This document shows, piece by piece, positions 26,908 to 47,100 of a DNA stretch of 64,000 nt. The DNA is taken from contig CP121319.1 of assembly GCA_043584915.1 (NCBI GenBank), positions 2,863,228 through 2,927,227 on the forward strand. The letters are read 5' to 3'. A model generated the notes under the pieces. That model did no database searches and was not told the origin of the DNA. It saw nothing but the letters and a program-made list of their open reading frames with translations. The stretch comes from Fluviicola sp. (GTDB lineage: Bacteria; Bacteroidota; Bacteroidia; Flavobacteriales_D; Crocinitomicaceae). Positions within the stretch are counted from its first letter, which is position 1; every line of letters starts with the position of its first letter. The position numbers and the translations under genes are program-made.

Positions 26908-26908
26908 T

Positions 26909-27493
26909 TTACAATTGATTTATTGTTTGATCTGTTTCTGTGATAATGCCTCCTTGTGATTGAACATCCTCGCTTTCAATTTGAATTACGCTTACTTTGT
27001 AAACTGCCGACGGTCGCTGTTTTCCACCCAAACTTCCCCAGATATAACTTTGTTCCTCAAAAGTTGGAGTGTACAATTCCACATGAAATTTGAAGTTGTC
27101 AAGCGAACTCAAGGGGTTCATTTCATTGGTGGAATGATTGTATATCGAATTCGATTGCGTGAATACCTTTTTCCCTTGAAAGAACTCTACTATTCCCGAT
27201 AGATCAGCAAGCTCCTCATCATAGGAACCAATTCCACGATTGACAGAGAACAGAATGTAGAGATTCAAGTTAATCACTGGCTGTTTTACTTGGGTGACAT
27301 TTCCGACATTGCGGATATTCTTGAAATTCTTCATGGTGTTTTCTTCACTCATGTTGATGAGTGTAAGAAGAATAGTGTCCTCAATTGCACCGTTGTTAGA
27401 TTCATCAAGTAGCGCAATATTCCCTAAAGTAACCTCCTTGTCGAGGTAGTCTTCTACTTGTAACGCGATTACTTGTAATACTTCAAATAGCAT
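26909..27493 (-). CDS. DUF4255 / Pvc16-Afp16-like tail terminator (cap) protein
   Basis: N-terminus MLFEVLQVIALQVEDYLDK and the ~190-aa size. It is the first gene of the operon, as is common in Bacteroidota eCIS loci. Confidence 0.65.
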   Translation of the reverse strand: MLFEVLQVIALQVEDYLDKEVTLGNIALLDESNNGAIEDTILLTLINMSEENTMKNFKNIRNVGNVTQVKQPVINLNLYILFSVNRGIGSYDEELADLSGIVEFFQGKKVFTQSNSIYNHSTNEMNPLSSLDNFKFHVELYTPTFEEQSYIWGSLGGKQRPSAVYKVSVIQIESEDVQSQGGIITETDQTINQL

Positions 27494-29606: not shown

Positions 29607-30587
29607 TTATTCAATTTCGGTTGCTTGAGAAGATTCTTCTGATTCTATTTCTACACCGTCCTTTGCGATACTATCGTAATAAAGTTTTGTCAGTTCAGAA
29701 GTGAGTAAATCATCATTTAACATCTTTATGAGAAGGTCTTTTGAAACGCGAGTGTCAAGATTGAACTTTGTTTCATCCGCATTATATCTCATGCTTCGTT
29801 TGGTACTTGGATGATTTTTTGAAAACGCAATAATGCTTTCATTCGGAATACCGAGTCTCATAACAGGAGAGGAGCGCGCTACCTTTGTAAGTTTTCTTGC
29901 AAAACTAACGTCAGAAACAAGTTCTCGAAGCGCTTCAATATTGCTGACCAATTCTAAATCTCGTATGGCATTTAGACTAACGAGCGCTTCTCGTTCAATA
30001 ACATCATGGAATCCAAAACTACGCTCGATTGTACCTAAGTCCATAATGATGAGTTCGCCACCTACCCGTATGACTTGAAATTTTGGCGTGATACGTAAAA
30101 GTTGTTCTTCAAATCGTTCGAAACGTTCACTTGGCTTTCTAAATATATATCCACCGCGACCTATTATTTCTACAGGAGAAAGTTTTTTGTAGAGTGTTAA
30201 ATCATTCGTATTATCTGCTAAGACAACAATTAAGGATTCTATTTTTGCAAGTTCATCATTTCTGAAGTTAAAGTTTTCAATTTTGTCGTTTCCAACAACG
30301 TTTTCCAAGACTTCAAGTTCTTCGGGGATTTCCAAGTCATATTGATAGAAACATTTTCCTCGTTCATCTGCTGATGAAAGTTGGAGAACAACGTGTTCAG
30401 ATTCTTCGATTATTGACTTGGTTATCGAGTTAGTGAAAAGTTCTTTCATCGCCGGAAGGTCATCTTCATCAATATCAAGTTTCACAGGGTCAGTTTCATC
30501 TTTGATGACAGCGTAAATGATAATTTGTAATTCTCCTTCTGGATTTTGTAAAAAAGCGAGTGCATCGTCAAGTTCAGTCTTGTTCAT
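29607..30587 (-). CDS. KwaB-like (DUF4868-like) protein, candidate Kiwa defence component (326 aa)
   Basis: Soluble ~320-aa protein whose start overlaps the end of a ~200-aa multi-TM protein gene. Size and architecture match KwaA/KwaB; there is no motif-level proof. Confidence 0.45.
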   Translation of the reverse strand: MNKTELDDALAFLQNPEGELQIIIYAVIKDETDPVKLDIDEDDLPAMKELFTNSITKSIIEESEHVVLQLSSADERGKCFYQYDLEIPEELEVLENVVGNDKIENFNFRNDELAKIESLIVVLADNTNDLTLYKKLSPVEIIGRGGYIFRKPSERFERFEEQLLRITPKFQVIRVGGELIIMDLGTIERSFGFHDVIEREALVSLNAIRDLELVSNIEALRELVSDVSFARKLTKVARSSPVMRLGIPNESIIAFSKNHPSTKRSMRYNADETKFNLDTRVSKDLLIKMLNDDLLTSELTKLYYDSIAKDGVEIESEESSQATEIE

Positions 30588-31164
30588 TGGTTGAAGTTAG
30601 AGAGGCGTAGTAAATCCTTTCGTCAAGTTTAAAATACTTTACGCGGTCCTCTTGGTTTATAATGTCCTTGGTTATAATAATGCGTTCTTTTCTTGTTGTC
30701 CCATCGCGAAACTCTCCACTCACTTTATAGATTCGAAAATTAAGAATAGCGAGCGTAGGGTTTGCGTAGAATAAGTCTGTCCTGATGTAGATTTTACCTA
30801 TGACAACTAAGATTATAACAAACGCGACAATATATCGAGTGCTATCGAATTGAAAGCAAACGAGCGGTATGATATAGGTGGTTAAAAAGGTTAAGTGTTC
30901 ATACTCTATGCTCTCGACCTCAGTGATTTTAAAAGAAAGTTGGGCGGTTCCTCTTGTTTGGAATTTAAAGTCACGTAGTGAGATTACCCCAATAATAAGT
31001 GCGAACAGGCACACTAACGGGATTCGGTTTCTATAGAGTAGTTCTGAAAATCCGATGAATTTCCATTGACCTGAGAAGCACAGGGGTACATCAATCGTAA
31101 TAACGATAATGAGAATAAACAGAAGCCAAAGTGAAAGAAAAAAAAGTCCAACTTTCCGAATCAT
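30574..31164 (-). CDS. KwaA-like small multi-pass membrane protein (196 aa)
   Basis: About four hydrophobic helices. Overlaps the downstream gene by 14 nt. Confidence 0.45.
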   Translation of the reverse strand: MIRKVGLFFLSLWLLFILIIVITIDVPLCFSGQWKFIGFSELLYRNRIPLVCLFALIIGVISLRDFKFQTRGTAQLSFKITEVESIEYEHLTFLTTYIIPLVCFQFDSTRYIVAFVIILVVIGKIYIRTDLFYANPTLAILNFRIYKVSGEFRDGTTRKERIIITKDIINQEDRVKYFKLDERIYYASLTSTNEQD

Positions 31165-31919: not shown

Positions 31920-34685
31920 TTAGGCCTTTGATCTTATACCCAACCAAAGTTTCATAAGCAATCCAGCAATGGCAATAATTAAAATCAAAGCAATCCAAAA
32001 GATGAAATTGCTATTCGGTGAACCTTCTATTAAGGTAATCGATGAAGTACTCCCAAGAACGACTGGGGTCGCCCAATTGCGCGGATGTGCACTTTGGTTG
32101 TCCGTGCTTTCGTCGTTCAGGAAATCCAACTTCGCTTGTTGCATTGCCCAGGCAGGGTGCGCATTTGTTTTTAAGTGAAGGTAAAATTGCTCAAAGATTT
32201 GTGCATTTGTTCCATGGTTGGCACGCCATATATTCGTGATCACACAATTGCTGCCAGAAGCGATAAATCCGCGTGCTAAACTCATCACACCTTCACCTGC
32301 AATATATTTTCCATTTCCTGTTTCACAAGCATTTAATACAACAAGGTCTGCTTTGGTCTCCAATTGCAAGAGTTCAGAGGTAAGCAATTTGTTCTCACCA
32401 TTGAAAGCAATCCAGGAGTCCAAAATATTGGCTGTATCCGACCCAGCATGCGTGGAGATATGAACAATTCTATTCTCCTCCAAAGCACGAGAAAATTGCA
32501 ATTTCGAAGCTTCGTTCCCCGTAAAGGAAATACCATTCAATTGTTTGCCCGCAGCACTAACCTCTTGCTCTGACTTAGAAAGGAATGGCAGCTCAGAACT
32601 ATTTTTAAATGCGGGAGCAAATCCAGCGAAAGCGCCAAATGCTTTGTTTTTAGCTTTGGAAAATGCCGTGGCCGTTGTGGGAGCATAGGAAATAACTTTA
32701 GAGCGTACCAAATAGGGCAATTCTTTCCAGTTGGATTTTTCCGCTTTGGATGAAACCAACGCTTCGAGAGGAATTTTACTCAAGAACCCATCAGGCAATA
32801 CAATCCAACGCTTTTTGTTTGATTTTCGCATCGATTGCGGAACCAGTTTGCGATAAAGTACATAAGCGTTTTCGGCATAGGTGCTCGGCGAATCTTCAGA
32901 GTTTCCATGCAATGTACTTCCAACAACAGTGATTGCTTCTTTCAGAGATTGATCCACGCGATGAAGTGCAAATTTTCCGTCTGAAACGCATACCGAATAA
33001 ATGTTGCTTCCAACAAAATAATTGATCAAACTTTCATTTTTCTTTAGCCCTTGCAGTTGGCTGTGCACCTTCTTTTCATCGTATTCATACAAATCAGATT
33101 GCAAGGTTGGATATCGCTTGAATAAAGAAGATCCCAAAATCTGCTTTTCCTGGTCCAGGTTTGCAATGGTTTTCGACAATGCCCGCTCATTTTCCTCATC
33201 CTGTTTCATAATCGCCGCTCGGCGTTCTCTTTCGAATTGGGAAATTTGAACGGCAAGATTTTGGAATTGTAGAAACTCAGGATCGTCCTGGTTTCTCGAA
33301 AACTTGAGAACTTGTAAGGATTGCGAAAGAAGAATCCCCTTTGATTGGTCAATAAACCTATACGCGATTTGTGCCAATGCATCCTCGGGTAACTTCGACT
33401 TTAAATCGAACGTTAATGCAATAGCCTCTTCACCAATAGCATGAATTTCTTCGGCAAAACTCAATTTCGAGTAAGTGTCCTGCTGCTCTTGAATACTAAT
33501 ATTAACCCAATCGAAATACGTTTGATAAGCCTCTAGTGCTGCTTGATGGAAACTGGCAGAATCTTTCAAGGCTTCACATGATCGTGCTTTTCCAATCAAC
33601 GCCTCACCAATGCTTACCTCTGGAGACATTTGCCCTGCTTCTGGATACGAAAGTGCATAATTGTTAGGGAAGGAGAAGCATGCTGCCTGCAAAGCACGAT
33701 GGTAAGTGTTCAAAGCGAGTTGATGATTCTGAGTTGCCGAATAATTATCCGCCAGAGACAAGTACACTTTGGCCACTTTTCTGTGTCGAAATGGATACAT
33801 TTCCAGAACTTCCTGCTCTGCATTCGTGAGTAGGGTGTGCGCACGTGCAAACTGCTTCGTTTGAGTGTACAAATTGCCCAAGGTTGTGTACACACCAATT
33901 TCGTAACGCTTGATTTGATCAAATCGATAATCTGCCGTATTTATGGCATTCCTCGCCCTTTGGAAGGCGGTCAAACTTTGCTCTGAAGCCAAAATGCCTT
34001 CGGAGAATGCTCCGTTTTTAGCATAGGCTTCAGCAAGACTTGAGTAAAGCAACCCCTTGTTATAATAATCGCTTTTACTTTTGACAATTCCCGAAGTGAG
34101 AATGTGTTCGCAAGAGTCCATTAAGCCTTTGTTCATGTAGGCGCGTCCCAAATCATTGATGCCGTTCAATTCAGCGCCAACTTCCTTATTTTCAGCGGCA
34201 ATAGCAATGAATTGTTCCAACATCCGAATGGCTTGCTCGTTTTCTCCAAAACGCGTGTGGATGTTACCCAGTGGTTGATACACATAGCGAGCCACAAGAA
34301 AATTTTCAATTTCTGTTGCGCGAAAACGTTCCAAAGCGAGCAGGTAATTTTCTTTGGCTTTGAGGAAATTTCCATAATGGGCCTCATGCAAGTACGCACG
34401 ATTCACATAAATCCAAGCAAGTTTTTCAATTTCCTGTTTGAGCATTGGCTCGGCAGGCATAAAATTGATACAAGAATCCAAAGTTGCAAGCGCCCGATCA
34501 ATCTCATGGTTATCCCGATATGCCGCACTTCTTGATTTATGGTCGTTGTACCAGGCCATTAAATCTACCTCTGGCGCATCGACTTTTATCGTAGTTCTGT
34601 TTGAACTTACGCCCCAAGGTGCGGTCAAGCTCCAAAGAAAAATGGCAACAAAGCAAAAAAATAGTGGTACGAAAACGTGTTTCAT
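31920..34685 (-). CDS. TPR-repeat CHAT-domain (caspase-like) protease with N-terminal leader and C-terminal TM helix (921 aa)
   Basis: CHAT catalytic His/Cys context (IVHISTHAGSD; DLVVLNACETGNG...GVMSLARGFIASG). The N-terminal half is TPR-like and the C-terminus is hydrophobic (FIFWIALILIIAIAGLLMKLW). Confidence 0.8.
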   Translation of the reverse strand: MKHVFVPLFFCFVAIFLWSLTAPWGVSSNRTTIKVDAPEVDLMAWYNDHKSRSAAYRDNHEIDRALATLDSCINFMPAEPMLKQEIEKLAWIYVNRAYLHEAHYGNFLKAKENYLLALERFRATEIENFLVARYVYQPLGNIHTRFGENEQAIRMLEQFIAIAAENKEVGAELNGINDLGRAYMNKGLMDSCEHILTSGIVKSKSDYYNKGLLYSSLAEAYAKNGAFSEGILASEQSLTAFQRARNAINTADYRFDQIKRYEIGVYTTLGNLYTQTKQFARAHTLLTNAEQEVLEMYPFRHRKVAKVYLSLADNYSATQNHQLALNTYHRALQAACFSFPNNYALSYPEAGQMSPEVSIGEALIGKARSCEALKDSASFHQAALEAYQTYFDWVNISIQEQQDTYSKLSFAEEIHAIGEEAIALTFDLKSKLPEDALAQIAYRFIDQSKGILLSQSLQVLKFSRNQDDPEFLQFQNLAVQISQFERERRAAIMKQDEENERALSKTIANLDQEKQILGSSLFKRYPTLQSDLYEYDEKKVHSQLQGLKKNESLINYFVGSNIYSVCVSDGKFALHRVDQSLKEAITVVGSTLHGNSEDSPSTYAENAYVLYRKLVPQSMRKSNKKRWIVLPDGFLSKIPLEALVSSKAEKSNWKELPYLVRSKVISYAPTTATAFSKAKNKAFGAFAGFAPAFKNSSELPFLSKSEQEVSAAGKQLNGISFTGNEASKLQFSRALEENRIVHISTHAGSDTANILDSWIAFNGENKLLTSELLQLETKADLVVLNACETGNGKYIAGEGVMSLARGFIASGSNCVITNIWRANHGTNAQIFEQFYLHLKTNAHPAWAMQQAKLDFLNDESTDNQSAHPRNWATPVVLGSTSSITLIEGSPNSNFIFWIALILIIAIAGLLMKLWLGIRSKA

Positions 34686-34711
34686 ACCACTAAACTATCA
34701 GTTTTTAGAGA

Positions 34712-36040
34712 TTACTTTTTCTTAATGAGAGAATTTTCTTTCATCGGTTCAGCTATTTGATTGGTCGGCTTTACCGTATAAAAGCCACCGCCAGACGTCA
34801 ATGGGTCCATGCAAATAGTCGTAACTTCATTCGTCTCAATTGGGGCGTTTTCATCGAATACAATTGTCGAATGGCACACCACAGCCGGGCCGAAGCGGTA
34901 ATTGGGTAGCACCTTAACTGTAAATTCAACAGAGGAACGTGTAAGACTGAGGTCTTTACACATGCGGTCTTGAGTTGTTCGTAAAACTAGATCGTTGAAC
35001 TCAAAGGTAAGAATGCGTGTATCATAGTCAATGTCATAAATGGGGCCATTGCCGGGGTTATAGGCATTGTTGATTGGTTTCATTTGAATAGTTGTACCAC
35101 CGTATTCCTTTGGTAATACGATCTCTGAGATGGTCGATAAATTCAGTTTTGGATCCAAATGGCACTTTACCTGAACAAATCGGGTAGTGGTATCTCCCAC
35201 ATTTTGGAAATGCACCTTGTATGTGATCGGTTCCCCTCCAAAATCACATTCAGTTACAGCTTCTGAAGTCTCCTGCATAAAGTTAGGGTCATGCGATTCT
35301 GCCACTGGAATGCTTAATGCACAACGTGTAACGTTATTCATTGGTGGCAATTCATGTTTGTCGATATTCATGGATACGTTAAAAGTAACGACTTCTTGAG
35401 TAGGAGAAATAACGGCAACAGGAACTAGAATAGTACGTTCTTGTCCTGCTCTTAAACCGCTAAAACGCCACCTTTTCGCTTGATCAAATACTTCACCATT
35501 GGGATGAAACTCAGGGTGCAACCCGATATAGTTTGAGGCGAAGCGTGTAGCCGGGTCTGCGGTCAAATCCAAAGAGCCAGTGTAGGCTCCATTTCCGCCG
35601 ATTTGTGGAGGCAAAGCATACGTGATTAACAGAAAAAGGGTGTCATCAGGTACAGCGTTACGGTAATGTTGAATTTTTATGGAGGTTCCAGGATCGAGTA
35701 ATTGTCCGCTGATGGGCGCACCGCTATTTGGCGTAGAAGTAACCACTTTTGGCGGAGGTCCTCCGGTTCCATAATTTTCTGTTGGAGCAGCGAAAACTTC
35801 ATATGATCCCATTCTCGGGAATGTTGTTATCGGGTCTTCTACAAAACTGAATTGATTGTCACCAAACCACCAAAGGTGAGAATAAAACGCTCCTTGTTGA
35901 GAAATGGGCAAGCCTTGAAATTCGTATTTGAATTGTTCAGGATTTCCAACAACCGTTTGAACAATTTGTTGTGCTTGCACCTGAAATAAGCAAATACTAA
36001 AAAAGAGAAGTAGAGACAGGGTGTTTTTGTTTGTTTTCAT
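34712..36040 (-). CDS. Secreted hypothetical protein (442 aa)
   Basis: Signal peptide MKTNKNTLSLLLFFSICLFQVQAQQ. Beta-rich, with no assignable domain. Sits upstream of the CHAT gene in the same orientation. Confidence 0.6.
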   Translation of the reverse strand: MKTNKNTLSLLLFFSICLFQVQAQQIVQTVVGNPEQFKYEFQGLPISQQGAFYSHLWWFGDNQFSFVEDPITTFPRMGSYEVFAAPTENYGTGGPPPKVVTSTPNSGAPISGQLLDPGTSIKIQHYRNAVPDDTLFLLITYALPPQIGGNGAYTGSLDLTADPATRFASNYIGLHPEFHPNGEVFDQAKRWRFSGLRAGQERTILVPVAVISPTQEVVTFNVSMNIDKHELPPMNNVTRCALSIPVAESHDPNFMQETSEAVTECDFGGEPITYKVHFQNVGDTTTRFVQVKCHLDPKLNLSTISEIVLPKEYGGTTIQMKPINNAYNPGNGPIYDIDYDTRILTFEFNDLVLRTTQDRMCKDLSLTRSSVEFTVKVLPNYRFGPAVVCHSTIVFDENAPIETNEVTTICMDPLTSGGGFYTVKPTNQIAEPMKENSLIKKK

Positions 36041-36253: not shown

Positions 36254-36778
36254 GTGATTCAATTTTTACTCGATAAAAATCGGGGTAAAATTACTTCGTA
36301 TGTGCTAAAAAATAGCGGTGGGAAAGACGATGCCGAAGCAGTTTTGGTGGAAGGCGTAACCCATTTAATTTTGAATGTAAGGAAAGGTCAGTTCAAGGGG
36401 GGAAGTACGCTGGGAACCTATCTTTTTTCCATTTGTAGGGGCGTTTGGTTGAAAACTTTACGGAAGGAAAAACGCTACGCAGACCTTGAAGAAGATACAT
36501 CAACGGCGATGGATAATAACTCGCCGCTGCAACATTTCTCAGAATCGGAGTTGCAAAAGGAAGTTGGCTTTTTACTAGGGAAAATTGGAGCGGCGTGCCA
36601 GGAAGTTTTGAGATTATGGGCACAACATTATTCCATGTCGGAAATTGCCGCGCAAATGGAGTATAAGAATGCTCAGATTTCCATGAATAAGAAGAACAAA
36701 TGTTTGGGGAAATTGAAAGAAATCGTTCGAGAAAACCAAAAATATAGAGAGCAATTGCAAAGTTTTTTACTTAATTGA
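36254..36778 (+). CDS. ECF-type sigma-70 family sigma factor (start may lie upstream)
   Basis: Region 2-like segment (DAEAVLVEGVTHLILNV...TYLFSICRGVWLKTLRKE) and a region 4 HTH (MSEIAAQMEYKNAQISMNKKNKCLGKLKE). The frame stays open upstream of the GTG used in the track. Confidence 0.75.
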   Translation: MIQFLLDKNRGKITSYVLKNSGGKDDAEAVLVEGVTHLILNVRKGQFKGGSTLGTYLFSICRGVWLKTLRKEKRYADLEEDTSTAMDNNSPLQHFSESELQKEVGFLLGKIGAACQEVLRLWAQHYSMSEIAAQMEYKNAQISMNKKNKCLGKLKEIVRENQKYREQLQSFLLN

Positions 36779-36782: not shown

Positions 36783-37499
36783 GTGGAAGATCGCACGCAA
36801 CATATCGATGATTATCTCAACAAGCGCTTATTGGAAGAAGATGCAGCGAAGTTTGAGCGGGATTTAGAAGCAGATCCAAATTTGCGCGATGAGCTAGCAT
36901 TGCAGCAAAAAGTTCAACTGTTATTAGAAGAAAACGAGCGGTTGGAATTAAAAAGTCAAGTAGCGAAGATCGCTCAAAATCAAATCAAATCTGGAGCGTC
37001 GAAGTCCATGATTCTGAAAATCGCGGCTGTCATCCTTTTGCTTTTAATTCCGACTTATTTCTATGTGTCCAATCAGTATTCGGATGCCAGTTTGTACGCT
37101 GCTTATGAAGAAACCTATGAAGATCGATTGACGACAATGAGTGCTTCCGATGACCTTCAAGAGGCCATGCACGCTTACAATACCGAGAAATACAAGAAAG
37201 CTGCCATCTTACTCCGTGAAATACGCATCGAAAATGCGGAAGAACGTGCGGTCATTTATGAGGCGGTCGCTTACCGCAAGTCGAATCAGTCGCAAAAATC
37301 GATTCAATTATTGAACAAATACATCCCTAAATCACAGTTCAAGGAAACTTTGCAATGGGAACTCATTCTAAATTATTTGGCGTTAGAACAGGGCGATGAA
37401 GCGCAGAAAACACTTCAAGAGTTCCTCAAGAACAATTCAGGTTACAAGCAGGAACAAGCAGAGGCACTGTTGCAAGATCTTCAGAGTTTTTGGAGGTGA
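36783..37499 (+). CDS. Putative anti-sigma factor (single TM, TPR-like C-terminal domain)
   Basis: Starts 4 nt after the sigma factor stop. Has a short cytoplasmic N-domain, a TM helix (MILKIAAVILLLLIPTYFYV) and a helical-repeat C-terminus. Confidence 0.6.
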   Translation: MEDRTQHIDDYLNKRLLEEDAAKFERDLEADPNLRDELALQQKVQLLLEENERLELKSQVAKIAQNQIKSGASKSMILKIAAVILLLLIPTYFYVSNQYSDASLYAAYEETYEDRLTTMSASDDLQEAMHAYNTEKYKKAAILLREIRIENAEERAVIYEAVAYRKSNQSQKSIQLLNKYIPKSQFKETLQWELILNYLALEQGDEAQKTLQEFLKNNSGYKQEQAEALLQDLQSFWR

Positions 37500-37549: not shown

Positions 37550-37619
37550 TGAATTGTTGATTTGGCTTTTTTTAACCGAATAAAGACGTATATTTAAGAC
37601 TCTAGTCACTAAAATTACA

Positions 37620-38912
37620 ATGGTACGTCAAATCATCACAGATTTAGAATGGTTGCGCATGACCTTAATCGAGGTTATGACGGCATACGTTGAGCAACAA
37701 GATCAATACCAGGGAATCACATTACAAGCTCCGAAATTAAGTTCCGATAAAAACGATGCCTATGCACTGTTTCTCAATGAAAATGACCTTACTGATCAAG
37801 ATCGCTTTTTATTATGTGTTTCTCTAAGTCGTTATTTGGGTGATTTCTGGAAAATGCTCTTTTTGGAGAAAAATCCCTTTGGAATTCATGTTGAGAACGA
37901 ATTCGCTTATCCGACATTTACAACGGTTGTAGCAATTCTGGCTGGAAATGATTTGGGAAAACGCTTAGAAGTACTGGAAGTATTAAAATCTGATGCCGTG
38001 CTTTTTAGCAAGCAAGTGGTTGACATTGATCAAAAGGAACCCGGACAAGATATGATGGCGTGCCGTTTGAAGGTACATGCCAATTGGCGAGAACTATTTC
38101 TTTGGAATCGACACGAGCTGCCACGATATAGCATGGAATTTCCAGCAGAGCAACTCACCACCGATTTGGACTGGGAAGAGTTAATCTTAGAGCCTTTTCC
38201 GATGTCAAAACTCGAAGAGATCAGTGATTGGATGGAGAATCGTGACGAATTGGCGAATGTTGTGAATGGTTCAGGGCACTTAAAACCAGGGTATCGCTGT
38301 TTGTTTTACGGACCATCTGGAACGGGGAAGTCACTTGCAGCGGCACTTTTAGGGAAACGATTTGGGATTCCAGTCTTTCGTATTGATCTCAGTAATTTGG
38401 TCAGTAAATACGTTGGGGAAACCTCTAAAAACCTAAAGCGAATTTTTGATTTAGCGGAAGATAAAAACTGGATTCTTTTCTTCGATGAGGGAGATGCCAT
38501 CTTTGGAAAACGTGTCGATACGAGTCAAACAGACAACAAAACAGCAAGTTATGCCAATCAGGATATTGCTTTCTTATTGCAGCGCATTGAACGTTTTAAT
38601 GGTTTGGTTCTTGTAGCCACCAACATGCGTAAGAACATGGATGCGGCATTTTCACGTCGATTTGAGAACATCATTCACTTCAACATTCCTACACCTGAAA
38701 AGGCCATGGAAATTTGGGGCGAGTATTTGCCGAAGCATATTCAAATTAACAACGAAGCACAGATACAACGATTAATTGCGGAGAATCGATTGTCGTTGGC
38801 TTCACTCTACAATGTCATGCACCGTTTGACATTGATGAGCATCTCCAAAAAACAAAACGAATTCAAACTGGCCGACATCACGAAATTGATGGGCGAAGAA
38901 AAAATGAAATGA
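37620..38912 (+). CDS. Intact AAA+ ATPase, paralog of the eCIS Afp15-like ATPase (430 aa)
   Basis: Walker A (FYGPSGTGKS), Walker B (ILFFDEGDAIFGKR), LVLVATN and SRRF. Its N-domain is collinear with that of the broken gene at 8174-9069. Confidence 0.85.
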   Translation: MVRQIITDLEWLRMTLIEVMTAYVEQQDQYQGITLQAPKLSSDKNDAYALFLNENDLTDQDRFLLCVSLSRYLGDFWKMLFLEKNPFGIHVENEFAYPTFTTVVAILAGNDLGKRLEVLEVLKSDAVLFSKQVVDIDQKEPGQDMMACRLKVHANWRELFLWNRHELPRYSMEFPAEQLTTDLDWEELILEPFPMSKLEEISDWMENRDELANVVNGSGHLKPGYRCLFYGPSGTGKSLAAALLGKRFGIPVFRIDLSNLVSKYVGETSKNLKRIFDLAEDKNWILFFDEGDAIFGKRVDTSQTDNKTASYANQDIAFLLQRIERFNGLVLVATNMRKNMDAAFSRRFENIIHFNIPTPEKAMEIWGEYLPKHIQINNEAQIQRLIAENRLSLASLYNVMHRLTLMSISKKQNEFKLADITKLMGEEKMK

Positions 38913-39892
38913 GAAACTGGTTTTTACATATTGTTTTTGGAGTGTTGGCATTGCAGTTGCAGGCACAATGCTCCTGCGATAGCTTGGTTGCTGCTATTAA
39001 AGCGGAAGATACCATTGCTGTGAAGGAGTGTTTGGAAAGTGGTACTAATCCCAATTGTTGGGTGCTTCGCTATGAAAATGAACATGAGGAATTTTTTGGT
39101 AAGGGAGAAGATTATGTTTGGGAATGGATGGATCGCCCCATGGCATTTGCAATTCGAAAAAATAACATTGCGCTTGTCAAGCAACTGCACAAAGAAGGAG
39201 CCTCAGTGAACACTGGAAGTGTCCGTTTGCTCGACACGCTTGGAACACCAAGGTTTATGCTATATCGGGTACCCTTAATGCTTGCTGATAGTATCATCAA
39301 ACTTGAGGAAGATAGTACAGTTTATAATTATCTGGTTGCGCACGGTGCTGTTTCGCACAGAACTCAGTTTAGGAGGGGGGAAATGATTGAAAAATTATTT
39401 TTCTCGGATGTAGTAAGCGAACCCTATTATATGAACTCATTGGATTCACTTAAAAGCTTCAATAAATTACTTCTGGAATACGGGGATGCCATTATTTTCC
39501 CTCAAGAACCAACAGTATTAGCAGCTGCATTTAGTAGCAATGTTCCATCCTTACAAAAATGGATTTTGGCAAATAGAGATTACCGATTATTGCAAGGTAA
39601 GTCCCTCTACCGATTGAATCAAACTTTCGATGTATGGAAACTTGCCTTATATGGAGAATATTTATCGGCGCGTTCTATTTCCTTTTATAAGTTGCATTTT
39701 GGTTTAACCGAGGAATCGATTGAAAGGGATATGTCAATAATTAAAAGCAGACACGAATATGTGTACGAGTACCTGCAATTGGAGAAGGAACTACAAGACC
39801 CCAATGTCCGAAAACGAGAAAAGAAGGAGAATAAGCTGTACCGAATTGGACTGGTAATAAGTATGGAAAATGATTTCCCCGATCGATTATAA
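38909..39892 (+). CDS. Ankyrin-repeat paralog 1 (327 aa), N-terminal leader
   Basis: ATGA overlap with the ATPase stop. Leader plus QCSCDSLVAAIKAEDTIAVKECLESGTNPNC (ANK-like), and a basic tail. Confidence 0.75.
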   Translation: MRNWFLHIVFGVLALQLQAQCSCDSLVAAIKAEDTIAVKECLESGTNPNCWVLRYENEHEEFFGKGEDYVWEWMDRPMAFAIRKNNIALVKQLHKEGASVNTGSVRLLDTLGTPRFMLYRVPLMLADSIIKLEEDSTVYNYLVAHGAVSHRTQFRRGEMIEKLFFSDVVSEPYYMNSLDSLKSFNKLLLEYGDAIIFPQEPTVLAAAFSSNVPSLQKWILANRDYRLLQGKSLYRLNQTFDVWKLALYGEYLSARSISFYKLHFGLTEESIERDMSIIKSRHEYVYEYLQLEKELQDPNVRKREKKENKLYRIGLVISMENDFPDRL

Positions 39893-39900
39893 TTGAAGAA

Positions 39901-40959
39901 ATGAATCATGTAGTTTTCAGTATAGCATTTTTAGTATTTACGTTTCAATTGAATGCGCAATGTTCGTGCGACAGCTTGGTAGCTGCCATTGAAGTGGGAG
40001 ATTCTGCTACTGTGCGCAATTGTTTGGATTCAGGAACAGATCCCAATTGTACGATGAGTGAATTTCGGGAAGACTCCACCAATACCTTCGACGAAAATCA
40101 AAATGTAATTACAGTTGCCGTAACCTATCATTGGCGCATAACACCTTTAACAACTGCTCTTCACGAAGATAATTTGGACATAGTGCAATTGCTTCTGGAT
40201 GCAGGAGCCTCACCCAATACACCCGAAGTTTGCCTGGAGGAAGTGAATTATGGCGAAACAATAAACCTTCGTCTTACTCCACTTAAGATAGCGAAGAACA
40301 TGACCCAAGCGGATGAAGTCACAGCTCTCTTACTTGCCAATGGCGCTCTTACGGAAGAGGAATTAGAGGCAAGAGGGTTTCGTATTCAACTTTTGTCTAG
40401 TTATTACGATGATGACTATTTCCCTTGTAAAGATTCTATAACGAAATTACATGAATTGATTGAAACCTGGAGTCTTGAAATGATTATAGAAGATGAAATT
40501 CTTACGGAAAGAGCATTGGCAAATAACGATATGATTTTATTCGATTTTTTAGTTAATCAATATTCTGTTTCCTTGGACCGAAGGGCAAGCGGATATGTAA
40601 CCGTCGGAATGGGTATGTTCAAGCGAACAATATACAAAGAAGGCTACTCTCCCATCGGTTCGGTCTATTTCGGAGATAAAATGACTATTGAGATGATTGA
40701 TCTCCTTAAAAGTAACGGTGGTTTCGCAAAAGGAGAATTTGAAAAATATATTCTTAGAAAATCTGGTAATGACAATTGGGATGATAAAAAAGTACGCAAA
40801 TATTATCTTCTTGAACAAAAGCTAGAAGCTGATAAAGAGTTGAGCGAAAAAAAGAAACTGAAATACGAAAAAAAAATGCAAAAACTTTATGATCAGTTAG
40901 AAGCAAAGAATGGAATTAAAGCACGATTAGAAAATGATTTTAGCGAGGGGTGTCGCTAG
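39901..40959 (+). CDS. Ankyrin-repeat paralog 2 (352 aa)
   Basis: CSCDSLVAAIEVGDSATVRNCLDSGTDPNC and TPLTTALHEDNLDIVQLLLDAGASPNT (ANK consensus). The N-terminal half is nearly identical to paralog 3. Confidence 0.8.
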   Translation: MNHVVFSIAFLVFTFQLNAQCSCDSLVAAIEVGDSATVRNCLDSGTDPNCTMSEFREDSTNTFDENQNVITVAVTYHWRITPLTTALHEDNLDIVQLLLDAGASPNTPEVCLEEVNYGETINLRLTPLKIAKNMTQADEVTALLLANGALTEEELEARGFRIQLLSSYYDDDYFPCKDSITKLHELIETWSLEMIIEDEILTERALANNDMILFDFLVNQYSVSLDRRASGYVTVGMGMFKRTIYKEGYSPIGSVYFGDKMTIEMIDLLKSNGGFAKGEFEKYILRKSGNDNWDDKKVRKYYLLEQKLEADKELSEKKKLKYEKKMQKLYDQLEAKNGIKARLENDFSEGCR

Positions 40960-40972
40960 ATAAATTCATATT

Positions 40973-42025
40973 ATGAAATACAGCATCATCATATTTTTTG
41001 TCGGATTCTGCGCTTTTTGGGGAGTCTCTCAATGTTCGTGCGATAGCTTGGTGGCTGCCATTGAAGTGGGAGATTCTGCTACTGTGCGCAGTTGTTTGGA
41101 TTCAGGTACAGATCCCAATTGTAAGACGAGTGAATTTCGGGAAGACTCCACCAATACCTTCGACGAAAATCAAAATGTAATTACAGTTGCCGTAACCTAT
41201 CATTGGCGCATAACACCTTTAACAACTGCTCTTCACGAAGATAATTTTGGCATAGTGCAATTGCTTCTGGATGCAGGAGCCTCAACCAATACGCCCGAAG
41301 TTTGCTTGGAGGAAGTGAATTATGGCGAAACAATTAACCTTCGTCTTACTCCACTTAAGATAGCGAAGAACATGGCCCAAGCAGATGAAGTCACAGCTCT
41401 CTTACTTGCCAATGGCGCTCTTACGGAGAGAGAGTTAGAGAGAAGGGGAGATAGGATGGCAAAATTATCCATGTGCTATGATAATGGATCATTTCCTTGC
41501 AGAGATTCTATATTGAAATTGCACGAACTAATAGACTTATGGCAAGGTATGGTCTATTTGGATGAAGAATTTATGATTAGTCATGCGCTTAGAAGTAATG
41601 ATATTCTCCTTTTGAGGTACTTAGTTGATGTTCATCATGTTTCTTTAAAAGAGCGTCCAGAGAGATACGTGACTGTTGGGATGGGAATGTTCCGACGGAC
41701 GTTAAAAGAAGAAAGGTTTGCTCCGTTTGGGTCGTTGGTCGCCGGTAATAAATTAACAGTCTCATCAATACTCTATTTAGAAACTCAAAGGAGCATTACT
41801 GATGAACAGATTTACAATACTTTCCTTCAATACAGAAGCAAATATAAAGACAGGCGTAAAGTTGCCAAATACTTTAAGATGGAGAGAAAATACAAGGATG
41901 TTGATATGAAGTCTTCCAAGAAGGAAAGAGTAAAGAAAAAAATGCAAAAACTTTATCATCAGTTAGAAGCAAAGAATGGAATTAAAGCACGATTAGAAAA
42001 TGATTTTAGCGAGGGATGTCGCTAG
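40973..42025 (+). CDS. Ankyrin-repeat paralog 3 (350 aa)
   Basis: Same ANK module as paralog 2, the same leader as paralog 4, and the same tail as paralog 2 (KMQKLY.QLEAKNGIKARLENDFSEGCR). Confidence 0.8.
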   Translation: MKYSIIIFFVGFCAFWGVSQCSCDSLVAAIEVGDSATVRSCLDSGTDPNCKTSEFREDSTNTFDENQNVITVAVTYHWRITPLTTALHEDNFGIVQLLLDAGASTNTPEVCLEEVNYGETINLRLTPLKIAKNMAQADEVTALLLANGALTERELERRGDRMAKLSMCYDNGSFPCRDSILKLHELIDLWQGMVYLDEEFMISHALRSNDILLLRYLVDVHHVSLKERPERYVTVGMGMFRRTLKEERFAPFGSLVAGNKLTVSSILYLETQRSITDEQIYNTFLQYRSKYKDRRKVAKYFKMERKYKDVDMKSSKKERVKKKMQKLYHQLEAKNGIKARLENDFSEGCR

Positions 42026-42038
42026 ATAAATTCACATT

Positions 42039-43100
42039 ATGAAATACAGCATCATCATATTTTTTGTCGGATTCTGCGCTTTTTGGGGAGTCTCTCAATG
42101 CTCCTGCGATAGCTTGGTGGCTGCTATTAAAGCAGAAGACTCTGCTACTGTGCGCAGTTGTTTGGAGAGTGGTACTGATCCCAATTGTGAGGTCATTGAT
42201 TTGGCTTATCAAGACCAAAAAATTATGCGCGATGATACTTCGATGGATACCATTCAACTCATTCTGAAATGGCAAAAGCGCCCCATTGTATTCGCTTTAA
42301 CAAAGGATCCAAACCTGTTGCGTATACTATTGGATGCAGGTGCTTCTCCCAATACGGGATCTTATTGCTACCGAGAATTGCACTTTGACGAGTACCGACA
42401 ATATGAACTTCCACCAATGGAATTGATCGATTCTGCATCCCACCCAAATGCATTTAGAATGTTGATAAAGTATGGCGGTTTGACAGAAAAGCAATTGAAA
42501 GCCAGAGGAAGACGTATCGTAAAGTTGAGTACGTATTACAAGGGGTGGGGCGCTTGCTCTGATTCCATTCAGTTAATGCATAGACTTTTAGAAGTCTATG
42601 GAGAGTCTGTTCTTTTCAAGTCCAATAGAAATTTTCTTGATAGAATGATCTACAATAATGATATTGTGACGACAAATTATCTTCTGACTGTAAAGGAGGT
42701 AACTTTGAAAGAAGATAATGGAGATTACTTCTCGAGCGGAGCTATTTTACCAAGAGGAGTCGAAATCCCCGACTTTTCTCCTGTAGGTGCGATCATATCG
42801 AGTGATTATTTGACAATCTCTACCTTACTCTTGCTTTTAAAGCATAGCCCTGAACATTTTGAACAGCCACTAAAAGATAATATTGCTTATCGAGAGTTTA
42901 CGCGAAGAAAGGCAACAAAGCAAGCGCAAAAATATTTCACCATGTTTTTCGAAATCGAGGAGAACAAATCACTTTCAAAAAAGGAAATACAACGCATGGA
43001 AAAACGCATGCAACGCATTTACAACAAATTAGAAAAGAAAAATAGCATAGAAGCGCGCCTACAAAGCAAAGCAATGGATTGCGAACGAAGCAGGCGCTAA
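42039..43100 (+). CDS. Ankyrin-repeat paralog 4 (353 aa)
   Basis: Leader identical to paralog 3. Residues ~24-170 and the tail (FTMFFEIEENKSLSKKEIQRMEKRMQRIYNKLEKKNSIEAR) are nearly identical to paralog 5. Confidence 0.8.
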   Translation: MKYSIIIFFVGFCAFWGVSQCSCDSLVAAIKAEDSATVRSCLESGTDPNCEVIDLAYQDQKIMRDDTSMDTIQLILKWQKRPIVFALTKDPNLLRILLDAGASPNTGSYCYRELHFDEYRQYELPPMELIDSASHPNAFRMLIKYGGLTEKQLKARGRRIVKLSTYYKGWGACSDSIQLMHRLLEVYGESVLFKSNRNFLDRMIYNNDIVTTNYLLTVKEVTLKEDNGDYFSSGAILPRGVEIPDFSPVGAIISSDYLTISTLLLLLKHSPEHFEQPLKDNIAYREFTRRKATKQAQKYFTMFFEIEENKSLSKKEIQRMEKRMQRIYNKLEKKNSIEARLQSKAMDCERSRR

Positions 43101-43110
43101 CAGAAAAACA

Positions 43111-44178
43111 ATGAACAGTTTAAAACAGATTTATTTAGTGGCTCTTTTTATGGGAGTATTCACGCAAGTGCAAGCAAAATGCTCCTGCGATAGCTTGGTT
43201 GCTGCTATTAAAGCAGAAGACTCTGCTACTGTGCGCAATTGTTTGGATTCAGGAACAGATCCCAATTGTGAGGTCATTGAATTGGCTTATCAAGACCAAA
43301 AAATTATGCGCGATGATACTTCGATGGATACCATTCAACTCATTCTGAAATGGCAAAAGCGCCCCATTGTATTCGCTTTAACAAAGGATCCAAACCTGTT
43401 GCGTATACTATTGGATGCAGGTGCTTCTCCCAATACGGGATCTTATTGCTACCGAGAATTGCACTTTGACGAGTACCGACAATATGAACTTCCACCAATG
43501 GAATTGATCGATTCTGCATCCCACCCAAATGCATATAGAATGTTGATAAAGTATGGCGGTTTGACAGAAAAGCAATTGAAAGCTAGGGGAAGACGAATAG
43601 GGAAATTAAGCACCTATTATACAGGGTATGGAGCATGTGCAGATTCGATTCTCTTGTTGCATGCATTTTTGGATAAATATCAAGGAGAATTTATTCATAG
43701 ATCGAATAGGGTTTTAATCAAAAGAGCTTTGTTTCGAAACGATATTGTTTTTATTGAACAATTACTAAAGGTTAAAAATATCAGTCTCAAAGAAGAAGAA
43801 GGTAAGTACTTCTCCAGTGGAGCTATTCTACCGAGAGGGTATCAGGAGTTGGATTATTCTCCAATAAGCTCAATTACGGCAAGCGATTTTGTTACAATTT
43901 CTACGATTCTTTTAATGTTAGAATATCAGCCGGAAGTTATGGTTGATGCGATTAAAGAAGAAATTGTGGACGATCCTTATGGTAAGGGAAACTTCAAAAA
44001 AGTTAAAAAGTATTTCACCATGTTTTTCGAAATCGAGGAGAACAAATCACTTTCAAAAAAGGAAATACAACGCATGGAAAAACGCATGCAACGCATTTAC
44101 AACAAATTAGAAAAGAAAAATAGCATTGAAGCCCGAATGAATAGCAAAGCAATGGATTGCGAACGGAGTAGGCGCTAA
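43111..44178 (+). CDS. Ankyrin-repeat paralog 5 (355 aa)
   Basis: As for paralog 4. The central ~130 aa diverge. Confidence 0.8.
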   Translation: MNSLKQIYLVALFMGVFTQVQAKCSCDSLVAAIKAEDSATVRNCLDSGTDPNCEVIELAYQDQKIMRDDTSMDTIQLILKWQKRPIVFALTKDPNLLRILLDAGASPNTGSYCYRELHFDEYRQYELPPMELIDSASHPNAYRMLIKYGGLTEKQLKARGRRIGKLSTYYTGYGACADSILLLHAFLDKYQGEFIHRSNRVLIKRALFRNDIVFIEQLLKVKNISLKEEEGKYFSSGAILPRGYQELDYSPISSITASDFVTISTILLMLEYQPEVMVDAIKEEIVDDPYGKGNFKKVKKYFTMFFEIEENKSLSKKEIQRMEKRMQRIYNKLEKKNSIEARMNSKAMDCERSRR

Positions 44179-44196
44179 CGTACTAAAAACAATATT

Positions 44197-47100
44197 ATGA
44201 CCACTTTTCAAAAACTGCAATTGCGGACAGTTAGTGCTGCCAATGCCTCAACATCTATCAAACCTCTTTCTTTGAACGAATTGGTAAATTCACTGAGGTC
44301 AATGGCGCCGGGCGTTATGGAGAATTCTTTTGATACAGACCCAAGGGAGTTAACTGCGGATGAATTTGCAAGCTATGAGCAAAAGGTTGCTCACGTTCTT
44401 GAGTTAATGAATGGAATAAAGCCAAAAAACAAATATAAGTTTACTCAGGATAAAAAACGGTTTCAAAAACAAAGGAAGCGAGTTCTTGCTGCATTTGAGG
44501 TGCTCCAGAATATGAGCTTTAAAGAGCAAGACCATTTTGCTTCACATTACACAGAAGTTTTTGACGATGTCATTGGCAGTTTAGTATTAGAGGATTATCA
44601 AAAGTTCGATGCGGGCTTAATCCCAGGGGTTACTTATGAATTACTGGTCAATGGAGAAAGAAACCCATTATTGGTAATTCTGGATACGCCAAAATATTAC
44701 GCGGAGGATGTGGAAGTCATTGAAATGGCTTTATTGCTTTGTTCTCTCGTACAAGTCGAGGAGTCTGATACTACAACAGAAGGAACTAAGAAGAAAGCGT
44801 TCCAAGAAGCCGTTAAGGGAATTTTAAACAATCATAATCGTACTGAAGGACTAACGAAAGTAATCGAAGAGGAGGTGCCTGAAACAGATTACAAACTGTT
44901 TATCTGGCAAATGTTAAAACTGTTAAAGAATGCACGAGATTCAGGAGGCAATGTAAATACCAGAGCAATAACGGCGGGAATGAAATTTATTGGAAGAGGA
45001 GGTTTTTCCAAAGAATTGATTCTAGAACATATATCACTTGCCGATTTTCAAAGAAATAAAAGTGATGGTGGGCATGTATACGGGCTTCAGTTTGATGATA
45101 GTGATGTGAGCATCTATGCCGATTTAAAGGACGGGTATAAGGACCATGCGAAAGAGAATGGTTTAGAGAATGAAAGTGGAATAGATGGGGCATTCATTCG
45201 TGTAAAGGGTGAAAGTATTCCCATCTTAGGCATGGATTATATAACAAGTAATATGAGTGCCCATTTTGATGCTGGAGCATTCACGAAGGTCGAATTAGTG
45301 ATGACCTGGGATACCAAAAAAACCAGTGATGATGTGGGGGGGCGGAAGGAGCCTATTCAAGCCAATATTGATTTGAACAATGCAAATTTAACCTTAGATA
45401 ATGTTCTGTATCGTTCCCGATTTTTATCTAAAAAGCGCAAGGAAGATGGAACGTTAATAGAAAATGAGATGACCGAAGAACAGTATTCTGTTCTTATGGG
45501 AAACATTACTATTGAGAACCTCTCGATGAAAAACCTAACCATAACGGATGAATTAAGAAAATTTAAAAACAACTCAGAAGTTATTTATCGGTTAACAGAA
45601 GGAATTCAAGACCAACTGTACTTGTTAATCGATGTTATTTTGTCCATGGTTTCCCAAACCTCCCTTACACCAATGGACATCAAAGATTTTGAAAGTTTCA
45701 ATAACTCTGCCAAACGAACCATTCTTGGAGCAGATGGAGTAGAGTTGAAAATAGGGAAAGGAATGATCCGCAATTTTGTCGACTCTGAAGGAAAGGTTTT
45801 GGGCAATGTCCCATTGGATGGATTGACCATAAAACTGAACAGCCAGAAAGCCGAAGCGGAAGATTTCGATGTTGAACTTTGGAAGCAACAACAAGAACTC
45901 AAAGCACTCGAAGAAGATTTGGCGGAATTGTATAAAAAGAAAGCACGCTTTATTAAGAACCATGAAGGCGATTTTATCAGTAAATCAAAATATATAAACG
46001 AGTTTGATGAAACGAGAAAAAAGAGTACAATTGGAAAGTTGATAGGTGAAATTGACTCCTTGAATAATGAAATTTCGGAAAAAATCAACTCTCCAATTAC
46101 CTACACACTTTCCAGTAATGATCCCCTTGGTTTTTCTCGCGCATTTTACATCGATGAAATGCTTCGCAAAACCTTTCAGGAAAAATTAGGTCTATTTGGT
46201 TTGTACGACATTCAGGGGCTCAATGAATTTACTCTAACGCAAGGCATCGAAATGAATGGTTCTATTGGGTTGGATCGAATTTCTGATACAGTTCTTAAAA
46301 TCGATGAAATTGCCGTTCCTAAATTGTTTGATAGTGCCGTACACATGGATTTAGGCGCTTTACGAATTAATGGTAACGATGTTAATCTGTCTAATTTAAA
46401 AGGAGCGATTAGTCTAAAATGGTCGGAAGTTGCTCCCACAGGTAGAGGTGAGGTGAAATCTGAACTCCGTCCAATAAAAATCGCTTTAACGGGTGGGGAT
46501 ATGACGGTAAAAGACCTTGAATTGGTAGATACCACCAATAAAAAACCATCCTTTAAAATAGGAGGAATGGTCACCTTGGAGAATACACAAATGATCTTTC
46601 ACAGTGTGGGCGATTTTGAAGGTGAAAACAATTACAAAGACATTGAATTTAGCTGTACATCTATTGTTCTCGACAATGTTGCTCAATATCAACATGCCTT
46701 AAAGGATAATCCTGAAATAGAGAATTGGTTTGTTGCCCAAGATGGAGGTACGATCAGACTGTCAGGAATCAATGTCCGCAATAAAAAATCCAACGCTTTA
46801 GGTATTAATGCTGCAGGAAATAGTGTGACTTCGCAGGAGCTTGAAGTAAAAGCAACTTCTGGGGCCTTCGATAATTTATTAGTTGATGGGTTTTCCATTA
46901 ATTCGAACATCACAAAATTAAGAGCTGTAATTACAAATGAAACGGAAACGACTCCAGATAATCAGGTGATTCGATCAACAATGAAAACAGAACTGTATTT
47001 TGGTTTAAGTGAATTGTTTGTGCCAGACTTAACACGCGAAATGGAAGGAATTAGTCTTTCACATATACCATATGATTCCGACGATATTAAGAAAAAAATC

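Follow-up and report, generated by a model that had tools for sequence, protein, structure and literature searches.

Five tandem paralogues with probably exchanged ends and diverged centres, encoding putatively exported ankyrin-like proteins, between an eCIS-type ATPase gene and a giant orphan gene in Fluviicola sp.

How does a bacterial genome come to hold five adjacent copies of one gene whose ends are nearly the same and whose centres are hardly alike, and what would such a set be for? The question is raised by an array at positions 38909–44178 of a stretch of 64,000 nt from Fluviicola sp. (GenBank assembly GCA_043584915.1, contig CP121319.1, positions 2,863,228 to 2,927,227 of the forward strand), which was analysed as a whole and is referred to here as the window. 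The five genes of the array, called X-family copies P1 to P5, all lie on the + strand: P1 (38909–39892; 327 aa), P2 (39901–40959; 352 aa), P3 (40973–42025; 350 aa), P4 (42039–43100; 353 aa), and P5 (43111–44178; 355 aa). The spacers between them measure only 8–13 nt, and all five open reading frames (ORFs) are intact and of full length, with their motifs kept. Directly upstream stands an AAA+ ATPase gene, whose stop codon overlaps the start of P1 in an ATGA sequence; the family of this ATPase serves to fill the phage-tail-like extracellular contractile injection systems (eCIS) with cargo. P5 lies 18 nt upstream of the gene of a giant orphan protein. A first-pass annotation had described the copies as recombinational mosaics of ankyrin paralogues with a hypervariable central domain, and had proposed gene conversion combined with diversifying selection. 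Taken as a whole, the locus is best explained by a tandem expansion with partial gene conversion of a family of putatively exported X proteins that may partner the giant protein, a reading to which a probability of roughly 0.55 is given.

The shared blocks were located with a repeat finder and by fixed-offset scanning. The N-terminal domains of P2 and P3 agree over 404 nt (39955–40358 and 41027–41430; 95.3% identity and a synonymous divergence, dS, of 0.09), a block that the first-pass annotation had put at 39961–40365 and 41032–41437; those of P4 and P5 agree over 425 nt (42093–42517 and 43174–43598; 91–98% identity, dS 0.05; previously 42100–42520 and 43180–43600). P4 and P5 also share 177 nt of tail (42926–43102 and 44004–44180; 86–96% identity; previously about 170 bp at 42930–43100 and 44010–44178), and the junction between P2 and P3 is repeated at the junction between P3 and P4 over 202 nt at 94.6% identity (40866–41067 and 41932–42133; previously about 40870–41060 and 41936–42127). 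This junction block covers a tail, a 13-nt spacer, and the next leader, that is, the P2 tail with the P3 leader and the P3 tail with the P4 leader; P3 matches P2 in its N-domain and tail and P4 in its leader. The two identical antisense ORFs that had been remarked at 42259–42453 and 43340–43534 are present as well (64 aa each) and are by-products of the P4/P5 block.

In a codon alignment, P2 and P3 are 92–100% identical over alignment nt 61–480 and 98% identical over nt 1021–1110, with 39–68% between; P4 and P5 are about 100% identical over nt 151–480 and 85–100% identical over nt 931–1110, with 37–72% between; and the leader is identical in P3 and P4. The strongly diverged core described earlier is therefore real: blocks of 93–98% identity surround centres of only 40–60%, nucleotide identity between the blocks is 37–72% in the codon alignment, and divergence is not uniform along the genes (permutation p ≤ 2e-4). 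The longest runs of concordant polymorphic sites comprise 83 sites for P2/P3, 186 for P4/P5, 27 for P3/P4 (in the leader), and 18 for P2/P5, each with p ≤ 2e-4 by column permutation. Breakpoint analysis by the maximum chi-squared method placed breakpoints at alignment nt 480 for P2/P3 and 507 for P4/P5 (p ≤ 0.001). Micro-mosaicism is also seen at alignment nt 118–154 (window positions 39901–44178), where P2 and P5 have VRNCLDSG and P3 and P4 have RSCL(D/E)SG (permutation p ≤ 2e-4).

The depth of divergence, estimated by the method of Nei and Gojobori, changes abruptly along each sister pair. In the N-block, dS is 0.092 for P2/P3 and 0.046 for P4/P5, whereas the centres of the same pairs are saturated, with a proportion of synonymous differences (pS) of 0.80 and 0.74, respectively; all remaining pairs of copies are saturated along the whole gene. 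In neighbour-joining trees of the five copies and nine outside relatives, N-domain and centre both yield the topology ((P2,P3),(P4,P5)) (90–100% bootstrap), and only the depth differs; the centres of P2 and P3, and likewise those of P4 and P5, remain mutual closest relatives (bootstrap 96–100%), and P1, the counterpart of the single copy in related genomes, clusters with the genes of those genomes. The five copies are thus old paralogues, with P1 apart from a ((P2,P3),(P4,P5)) clade. Because the topology is constant while dS is very uneven along the genes, the mosaic is best explained if old paralogues have undergone partial gene conversion or repeated rounds of unequal exchange, and the first-pass annotation was right on this point.

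In the course of events envisaged here, the array would be a lineage-specific tandem expansion from one copy to five; gene conversion or unequal exchange would recently have homogenised the two members of each sister pair over ~420 nt from the end of the leader and over the final ~180 nt, and among P2, P3, and P4 it would also have taken along the spacer and the leader of the following gene, and a centre of ~450 nt would have been left at its old divergence. A stretch reading CSCDSLVAAI...SGTDPNC is conserved in all five copies (67–97% identity), and the tail–spacer–leader block fits an exchange anchored in this stretch. The centre might have been spared in either of two ways: selection might keep five distinct binding specificities, or exchange might be unable to extend into sequence that is already diverged.

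The same pattern recurs in a second X array, found on unrelated metagenome contigs (L065:1–8315, L066:1–5495, and L067:1–1986) in the order giant 5′ fragment, X (340 aa), giant 5′ fragment (269 aa), X (339 aa), and full giant. The X pair of this array is itself a mosaic, with dS of 0.26 after the leader, a next segment that is saturated or at 1.76, a middle at 0.58, saturation over codons 226–330, and 0.17 in the tail. The unit duplicated there is X together with the first ~269 codons of the giant gene, and intact "giant N-terminal" ORFs of 269–277 aa stand between the X copies, agreeing at 81–82% with the start of the full giant and at 91% with one another; the contigs are broken off within the array. 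Uneven dS on one topology, identity runs beyond chance, and the repetition in L065 place the X genes among tandem paralogues under partial gene conversion. Concerted evolution with partial conversion in tandem families shares with the locus the uneven dS on one topology and tracts of 180–425 nt bounded by diverged sequence, and as a mechanism it is not unusual; what is special in comparison with ordinary concerted evolution is that the centre is spared and the ends are homogenised in two sister pairs and in an unrelated array.

A separate matter is whether the centre is under diversifying selection, as had been suggested of it under the name hypervariable. The ratio of nonsynonymous to synonymous divergence (dN/dS) cannot be estimated in the centre, where synonymous sites are saturated, and was replaced by a comparison of the proportion of nonsynonymous differences (pN) with pS, by counts of mismatches at each codon position, and by the younger array. 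For every pair, pN in the centre (0.30–0.57) is lower than pS (0.66–0.87); mismatches are most frequent at third, then first, then second codon positions, which is the pattern of purifying selection; dN/dS is 0.14–0.17 in the younger independent array of L065, where it can be measured; and the centre can be aligned across the whole family, with conserved motifs. Because of these four findings, the centre is taken to stand at the old background divergence of the family, and it is the unusually alike ends that are the anomaly. Between subtypes (P2 vs. P4), the N-domain is 27% identical, no better than the centre (28% and 20%). The evidence thus leans against diversifying selection in the centre, and the region-by-region comparison gave no positive evidence that selection maintains its diversity. 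Part of the diversification idea is kept alive by two observations, namely that the C-terminal half is the less conserved half in unconverted pairs (P1 vs. the copy in L003, and L003 vs. L005, both related genomes treated below; 16–31% identity vs. 46–58%) and that the layout has recurred independently; the same C-terminal region is the most diverged in the second array too.

X is a rare, previously undescribed protein family of Bacteroidota, ankyrin-like and predicted to be exported. When 1.84 billion cluster representatives were searched exhaustively with a hidden Markov model, nine further full-length members were recognised amid thousands of matches to generic ankyrin proteins; a word-index homology search with P4 returned the five paralogues only, profile searches of genome contigs with the X alignment and the AAA alignment returned no relative, and PADLOC and PHROGs gave no informative match to X. 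It has been reported that signal peptidase I substrates of Bacteroidetes follow a Q-rule (PMC5837995, PMC10653852). The leaders of the five copies are hydrophobic (maximum Kyte–Doolittle hydrophobicity over 11 residues of 2.55–2.98) and end in LQA↓Q, LNA↓Q, GVS↓Q (twice), and VQA↓K, so that Gln stands at +1, or Lys in P5; a hydrophobic leader ending in small-x-small and then Gln is also found in 8/8 relatives with a complete N-terminus. The leader is therefore probably a cleavable Sec signal with its signal peptidase I site immediately ahead of the Gln or Lys, and X, as read from its sequence, falls among the Q-rule substrates of this peptidase. It does not fall among bacterial lipoproteins, as the residue before the first Cys is Gln or Lys in all five copies, and there is no lipobox.

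Just past the cleavage site, four N-terminal Cys residues (CSC...C...C) are invariant in the five copies, and X is Cys-rich (1.2–2.0%, vs. 0.10% in the giant protein); these features suggest that X may be an exported, disulfide-bonded binding protein. Conserved Cys residues had been noted at both ends: those at the N-terminus held, but those at the C-terminus are missing from P1 and from most relatives. The tail of P1 (39700–39892) is shortened and degenerate, with ENKLY-----RIGLVISMEN against a family consensus of KKMxxIxxKLxxKN, and lacks the C-terminal Cys seen in P2–P5.

The name ankyrin was likewise found to suit only part of the protein. At the Pfam Ank (PF00023) cut-off of 21.1 bits, P2 (30.1 bits) and P3 (24.1 bits) pass with one repeat at aa 81–106, P1 reaches a sub-threshold 14.1 bits, and P4 and P5 have no match; a profile of the five copies searched against the PDB hit ankyrin and designed ankyrin repeat protein (DARPin) chains with E = 8e-15. 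An AlphaFold2 model of P2, built from an alignment of 14 sequences (predicted local distance difference test score, pLDDT, 82.5; predicted template modelling score 0.74), shows helix pairs at 23–43, 82–100, and 127–146 with long beta-hairpins between them, followed by more helices and a long C-terminal helix; the tail of X is a Lys-rich helix. Among the best 50 PDB matches listed by Foldseek, almost all are ankyrin-repeat or DARPin structures, but the matches are weak (E~1e-3, TM 0.22–0.25 on the query). The N-terminal half of X is thus modelled as about three ankyrin repeats with long beta-hairpin fingers, and only in this half does the model show a solenoid of helix pairs with such fingers. 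A profile of residues ~150 to the end, made from 14 family members, matched nothing in the PDB (best E = 0.14) and nothing in Pfam. X is accordingly not built of ankyrin repeats throughout: the term stands for about the first 150 mature residues and fails for the helical C-terminal half, which has no PDB or Pfam match.

The same genes were compared with their counterparts in related genomes. The order AAA–X–giant with a single X is found in L003, a metagenome-assembled genome of Crocinitomicaceae, and in L005 and L006, and a partial contig (L004) shows one X; the overlap of AAA stop and X start is conserved in three genomes. Flanking proteins are 82–98% identical in amino acid sequence to those of L003 (dN 0.01–0.09, dS 0.3–1.25), whereas P1 is 39–41% identical to the X of L003 and the giants are 31% identical (dN 0.65–0.69). 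DNA identity to L003 drops from ~94% to ~50% some 30 nt into P1 (~38940) and recovers at the stop codon of the giant gene (50080–50110). The X and giant genes thus form one sharp-edged island, across which related genomes differ far more than they do in the flanking genes. Since the giants of L003 and L005 are ~50% identical, yet flanking genes put L005 as the outgroup, the lineage of the window carries a cassette that was either replaced or greatly accelerated, coinciding with the expansion from one copy to five. As an immunity gene adjoins and co-varies with its toxin gene, X adjoins the giant gene in the window and in five lineages with a giant next to X. In the comparison with L003, the AAA gene itself (37600–38940 vs. 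8712–10030) has 90–97% DNA identity and a dS of 0.33, the sigma and anti-sigma genes before it 75–86% (dS ~1.0), and X ~50%, and the step up sits at the start of the AAA gene, which suggests either a separate recent exchange of this gene or an unusual constraint on it.

The ATPase (37620–38912, + strand; 430 aa) is of the classic AAA+ clade (PF00004, 1.2e-24) and resembles Alg15 and Afp15. Its relatives at 33–48% identity occur in 56 metagenomic loci and, in most of those with enough flanking DNA, stand among genes for tape-measure, DUF4157-toxin, cap, sheath, tube, and spike proteins. With its classic AAA+ domain and its homologues within eCIS clusters, the ATPase belongs to the eCIS cargo-loading family; in AlgoCIS, Alg15 has been reported to be needed for cargo loading (bioRxiv 10.64898/2026.05.27.728243). 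Through the stop/start overlap, X is translationally coupled to the AAA gene. The gene order on the + strand is an ECF-type sigma factor (36254–36778), a putative anti-sigma factor with weak matches only (36783–37499), AAA, P1–P5, and the giant, about 10 kb from an AlgoCIS-like structural cluster on the − strand (8488–27493), which holds genes for a tape measure, a PKD fibre-like protein, baseplate J, a spike, two tube proteins, a sheath, and a Pvc16_N cap. This cluster has no ATPase gene, and the only eCIS-type AAA+ gene of the window is the one some 10 kb away behind the sigma/anti-sigma pair, so cargo loading may be regulated separately from particle assembly. A scan for promoters and terminators, with models that exclude Bacteroidota promoters, showed no enrichment over shuffled sequences and no + strand terminator between the copies.

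The giant gene (44197–50079, + strand) encodes 1,960 aa with two Cys residues (0.10%), no Sec leader, and no DUF4157 domain. Its first 50 aa have a Kyte–Doolittle sum of −12 (−2 to −41 in homologues) and aa 6–21 a charge of +2 to +4; such a polar, weakly positive, Cys-poor N-terminus resembles that of described eCIS cargo (PMC11297309), and the protein is a putative eCIS cargo and the putative variable partner of X. A word-index search with the giant returned only the giant itself, and no internal repeats were found in it. Its homologues are 21–33% identical to it along the whole length, and two conserved motifs, KSDGGHVYG (~aa 288–296) and GRxSDDFxFLDHMTSG (~aa 1611–1626), could be functional sites.

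What, then, might five X proteins do? That the family is of an immunity, adaptor, or effector class, as first proposed, is plausible, and the class is narrowed by the Sec leader, the eCIS loader ATPase, and the giant that changes together with X. It has been reported that signal-peptide ankyrin proteins can serve as immunity proteins, as with Tli of E. cloacae (PMC11470151) and Bd3460 of Bdellovibrio (PMC4686830), and antibacterial eCIS toxins and a few toxin–immunity pairs have also been described (PMC8213781). It is tentatively suggested that X proteins are periplasmic or otherwise exported binding proteins that neutralise or in some other way partner the giant. X would bind the giant or its product in the periplasm and would either shield the producing cells and their kin against cargo arriving from outside or mature the cargo, and extra copies would cover several giant variants, as the periplasmic immunity arrays of type VI secretion systems (T6SS) do. 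A more specific and somewhat more doubtful form of this proposal takes AAA–X–giant as a polymorphic eCIS toxin–immunity cassette, in which the giant would be a rapidly diversifying cargo delivered into neighbouring bacteria, X would be the periplasmic immunity protein, and the array would be a stock against the giants of competitors.

Several points weigh against a partnership of this kind. X precedes the giant, whereas the usual order puts an immunity gene after that of its toxin, and a gene in the upstream place typically encodes an adaptor or chaperone in type VI systems. X was found in 0/56 of the other eCIS loci with this ATPase. The giant has no toxin domain and no known domain of any other sort in Pfam, NCBIfam, PADLOC, PHROGs, or the PDB, and a single-sequence model of its C-terminal 1,200 aa failed (pLDDT 30.5) and was not used. 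The X homologues in L001 and L068 occur singly, without a neighbouring AAA or giant gene, and the family is therefore not strictly tied to the AAA–X–giant module. The co-variation of X and giant rests on few points, namely three related genomes and one partial contig, and dN/dS, as described above, yields no positive sign that selection maintains the diversity of the centre.

Among the alternatives, the one that survives best, and which is nonetheless unlikely, is that X proteins are Sec-secreted effectors or adhesins, for example binders of proteins of a eukaryotic host or prey, in which case the array would widen the range of targets and the linkage to loader and giant would reflect co-regulation only. 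Most bacterial ankyrin-repeat proteins are host-directed effectors (background in PMC4686830), and a Flavobacterium is known to have EAT2, an eCIS-associated toxin that contains ankyrin repeats (PMC8213781); the whole family keeps the Sec leader, and the singleton X genes are distant from any AAA or giant gene, all of which would suit such a role. Pfam, however, shows no C-terminal domain for type IX secretion in X, and the Lys-rich helical tail offers no evident outer-membrane route either; such a role also sits poorly with an AAA stop/X start overlap conserved in three genomes and with the divergence of X together with the giant in one sharply bounded island.

Less probable again is a role inside the cell, in which X would work in the cytoplasm as an activator, adaptor, or chaperone and hand the giant over to the AAA+ loader; its leader would be bypassed by an internal start or would not export at all. 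The loader–X–cargo order and the translational coupling to AAA resemble the adaptor-before-effector layouts of type VI systems, a cytosolic isoform of E. cloacae Tli is needed for effector activation (PMC11470151), and the unit duplicated in L065 joins X to the first ~269 codons of the giant. Against this stand the canonical Sec leader with a Q-rule site in every member with a complete N-terminus and the conserved Cys cluster, which points to an oxidising compartment; an internal start just past the leader was not found, no search aimed at one having been made; moreover, X is not a general loading factor, because it is missing from the 56 other eCIS loci that carry this ATPase.

For the mosaic itself, partial conversion between old paralogues has two competitors. 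According to the first, P2/P3 and P4/P5 would each have arisen by a recent duplication of the whole gene, and afterwards either foreign alleles would have taken the place of the centres or hypermutation, such as a diversity-generating retroelement causes, would have altered them. Identity in the N-block and in the tail block is similar within each pair, as a single recent duplication would give, the tail–spacer–leader unit is repeated at the 2/3 and 3/4 junctions, and the locus exchanges or diverges fast between genomes. The centres are, however, still each other's sisters in the trees at 96–100% bootstrap, which is not expected of an imported allele; they carry indels, and their mismatches follow the third > first > second order of codon positions; and neither an adenine bias, nor a third repeat copy in the window, nor a reverse transcriptase signal was found, so this scenario is improbable. 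A diversity-generating retroelement in particular was rejected on the mismatch fractions at A (0.32–0.47), C (0.56–0.67), G (0.46–0.49), and T (0.33–0.42), which show no adenine bias; a look through the 64-kb window for silent cassettes, further X fragments, or further copies of array sequence gave none. That the array is an assembly artefact or a row of decaying pseudogenes has next to no likelihood, even if repeats of 177–425 nt at 93–98% identity could mislead short-read assemblers and the metagenomic contigs with the second array break inside it, because each copy has a unique centre of >450 nt, which outlasts the longest repeat (425 nt), on a 4.17-Mb contig, making collapse or expansion of the array unlikely, and because the five ORFs are intact and of full length, with conserved motifs and a substitution pattern of purifying selection.

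Several known systems resemble the locus in part. Tli/Tsi immunity arrays stand beside T6SS effectors, and Serratia Afp18, of 2,367 aa, is the product of a giant gene after the ATPase gene. A likeness in architecture is seen to Tli of Enterobacter cloacae, the ankyrin protein that confers immunity to Tle, a lipase effector of type VI secretion (PMC11470151). In Tli, as in X, a signal sequence precedes an ankyrin solenoid whose finger loops are long, and Tli shows that one ankyrin protein can both neutralise and assist its partner; unlike X, which has no lipobox and resembles a signal peptidase I substrate, it is a lipoprotein, it has six ankyrin repeats where X has about three and an unmatched helical half, and its partner is a known lipase delivered by a T6SS, whereas the putative partner of X is an orphan 1,960-aa protein encoded beside an eCIS loader gene. 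Bd3460 of Bdellovibrio bacteriovorus (PMC4686830) is likewise a small signal-peptide ankyrin protein, and its gene adjoins that of the periplasmic enzyme it blocks; it differs from X in being a single-copy protein of ~23 kDa with six repeats and DD-endopeptidase targets, with no tandem array, no mosaic, and no link to an injection system.

T6SS immunity arrays and the orphan immunity modules of polymorphic toxin loci (PMC3482391) share with the locus diverged paralogues beside a polymorphic large protein, a locus more variable than its flanks, recombination between copies, and, as in the X array of L065, truncated fragments of the large gene between copies. They differ in that X lies upstream of the large gene and that the L065 fragments are N-terminal rather than C-terminal toxin tips; polymorphic toxin loci vary at the C-terminal tip, whereas the giant varies along its whole length. 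The payload regions of eCIS (Afp17/Afp18 of Serratia, the payloads of PVC, and Cgo1/Cgo2 of AlgoCIS; PMC8894135, PMC8213781, bioRxiv 10.64898/2026.05.27.728243) have in common with the locus the ATPase family, a giant gene downstream, and, in the giant as in described cargo, a polar, weakly positive, Cys-poor N-terminus. Unlike them, the giant has no DUF4157 domain, and the genes of ATPase, X, and giant stand behind an ECF sigma/anti-sigma pair some 10 kb away from the structural genes; so far as could be established, no exported ankyrin-like gene has previously been described between an eCIS loader and its cargo.

Geller et al. (PMC8213781) noted that an immunity gene cannot be recognised for the majority of antibacterial eCIS toxins, and they pose it as an open question how the producing cells escape harm from them. 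X is a compact candidate answer: a putatively exported family placed between loader and giant, with arrays in two lineages, in an island that diverges as one. If X neutralises or activates the giant, it would be the first periplasmic immunity or partner family in eCIS biology, a new class of 1,900-aa cargo would be defined, and the array would supply five related natural binders, alike in their swapped ends but each with its own centre, with which specificity could be mapped. If the doubtful cassette form holds, eCIS particles would serve as weapons between bacterial strains in Flavobacteriales, and the logic of immunity arrays, known until now from T6SS, contact-dependent growth inhibition (CDI), and Rhs systems, would extend to them. 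If X does neither, the region is a clean but ordinary example of partial concerted evolution.

Some further observations concern the surroundings. A canonical eCIS cargo or toxin of the window, a DUF4157/eCIS_core protein of 1,412 aa, is encoded at 3905–8143 (− strand). In other eCIS loci, proteins of 350–400 aa with a hydrophobic N-terminus directly follow the loader ATPase (L010:4296–5348, L033:11198–12262, and L037:11255–12451). Those of L010 and L033 (~350 aa) were considered as remote relatives of X and rejected at an hhalign probability of 0.2–0.3%; such proteins might be analogous exported partners. On the − strand, between a ComM/ChlI-like gene and a CHAT-TPR gene, lies a complete Kiwa anti-phage pair, KwaB (29607–30587; E = 3.9e-117) and KwaA (30574–31164; E = 6.2e-76); because L003 carries three small unrelated ORFs at the same place, the site is taken as a variable defence islet. 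The stretch between the eCIS cluster and the sigma, AAA, and X genes (31920–36040, − strand) encodes a TPR-CHAT protease-like protein of 921 aa and a DUF7619 protein of 442 aa that has a signal peptide; both are kept in L003 at 81–84% identity, and L005 has instead a 1,172-aa FG-GAP/DUF7619 protein with a type IX secretion sorting domain.

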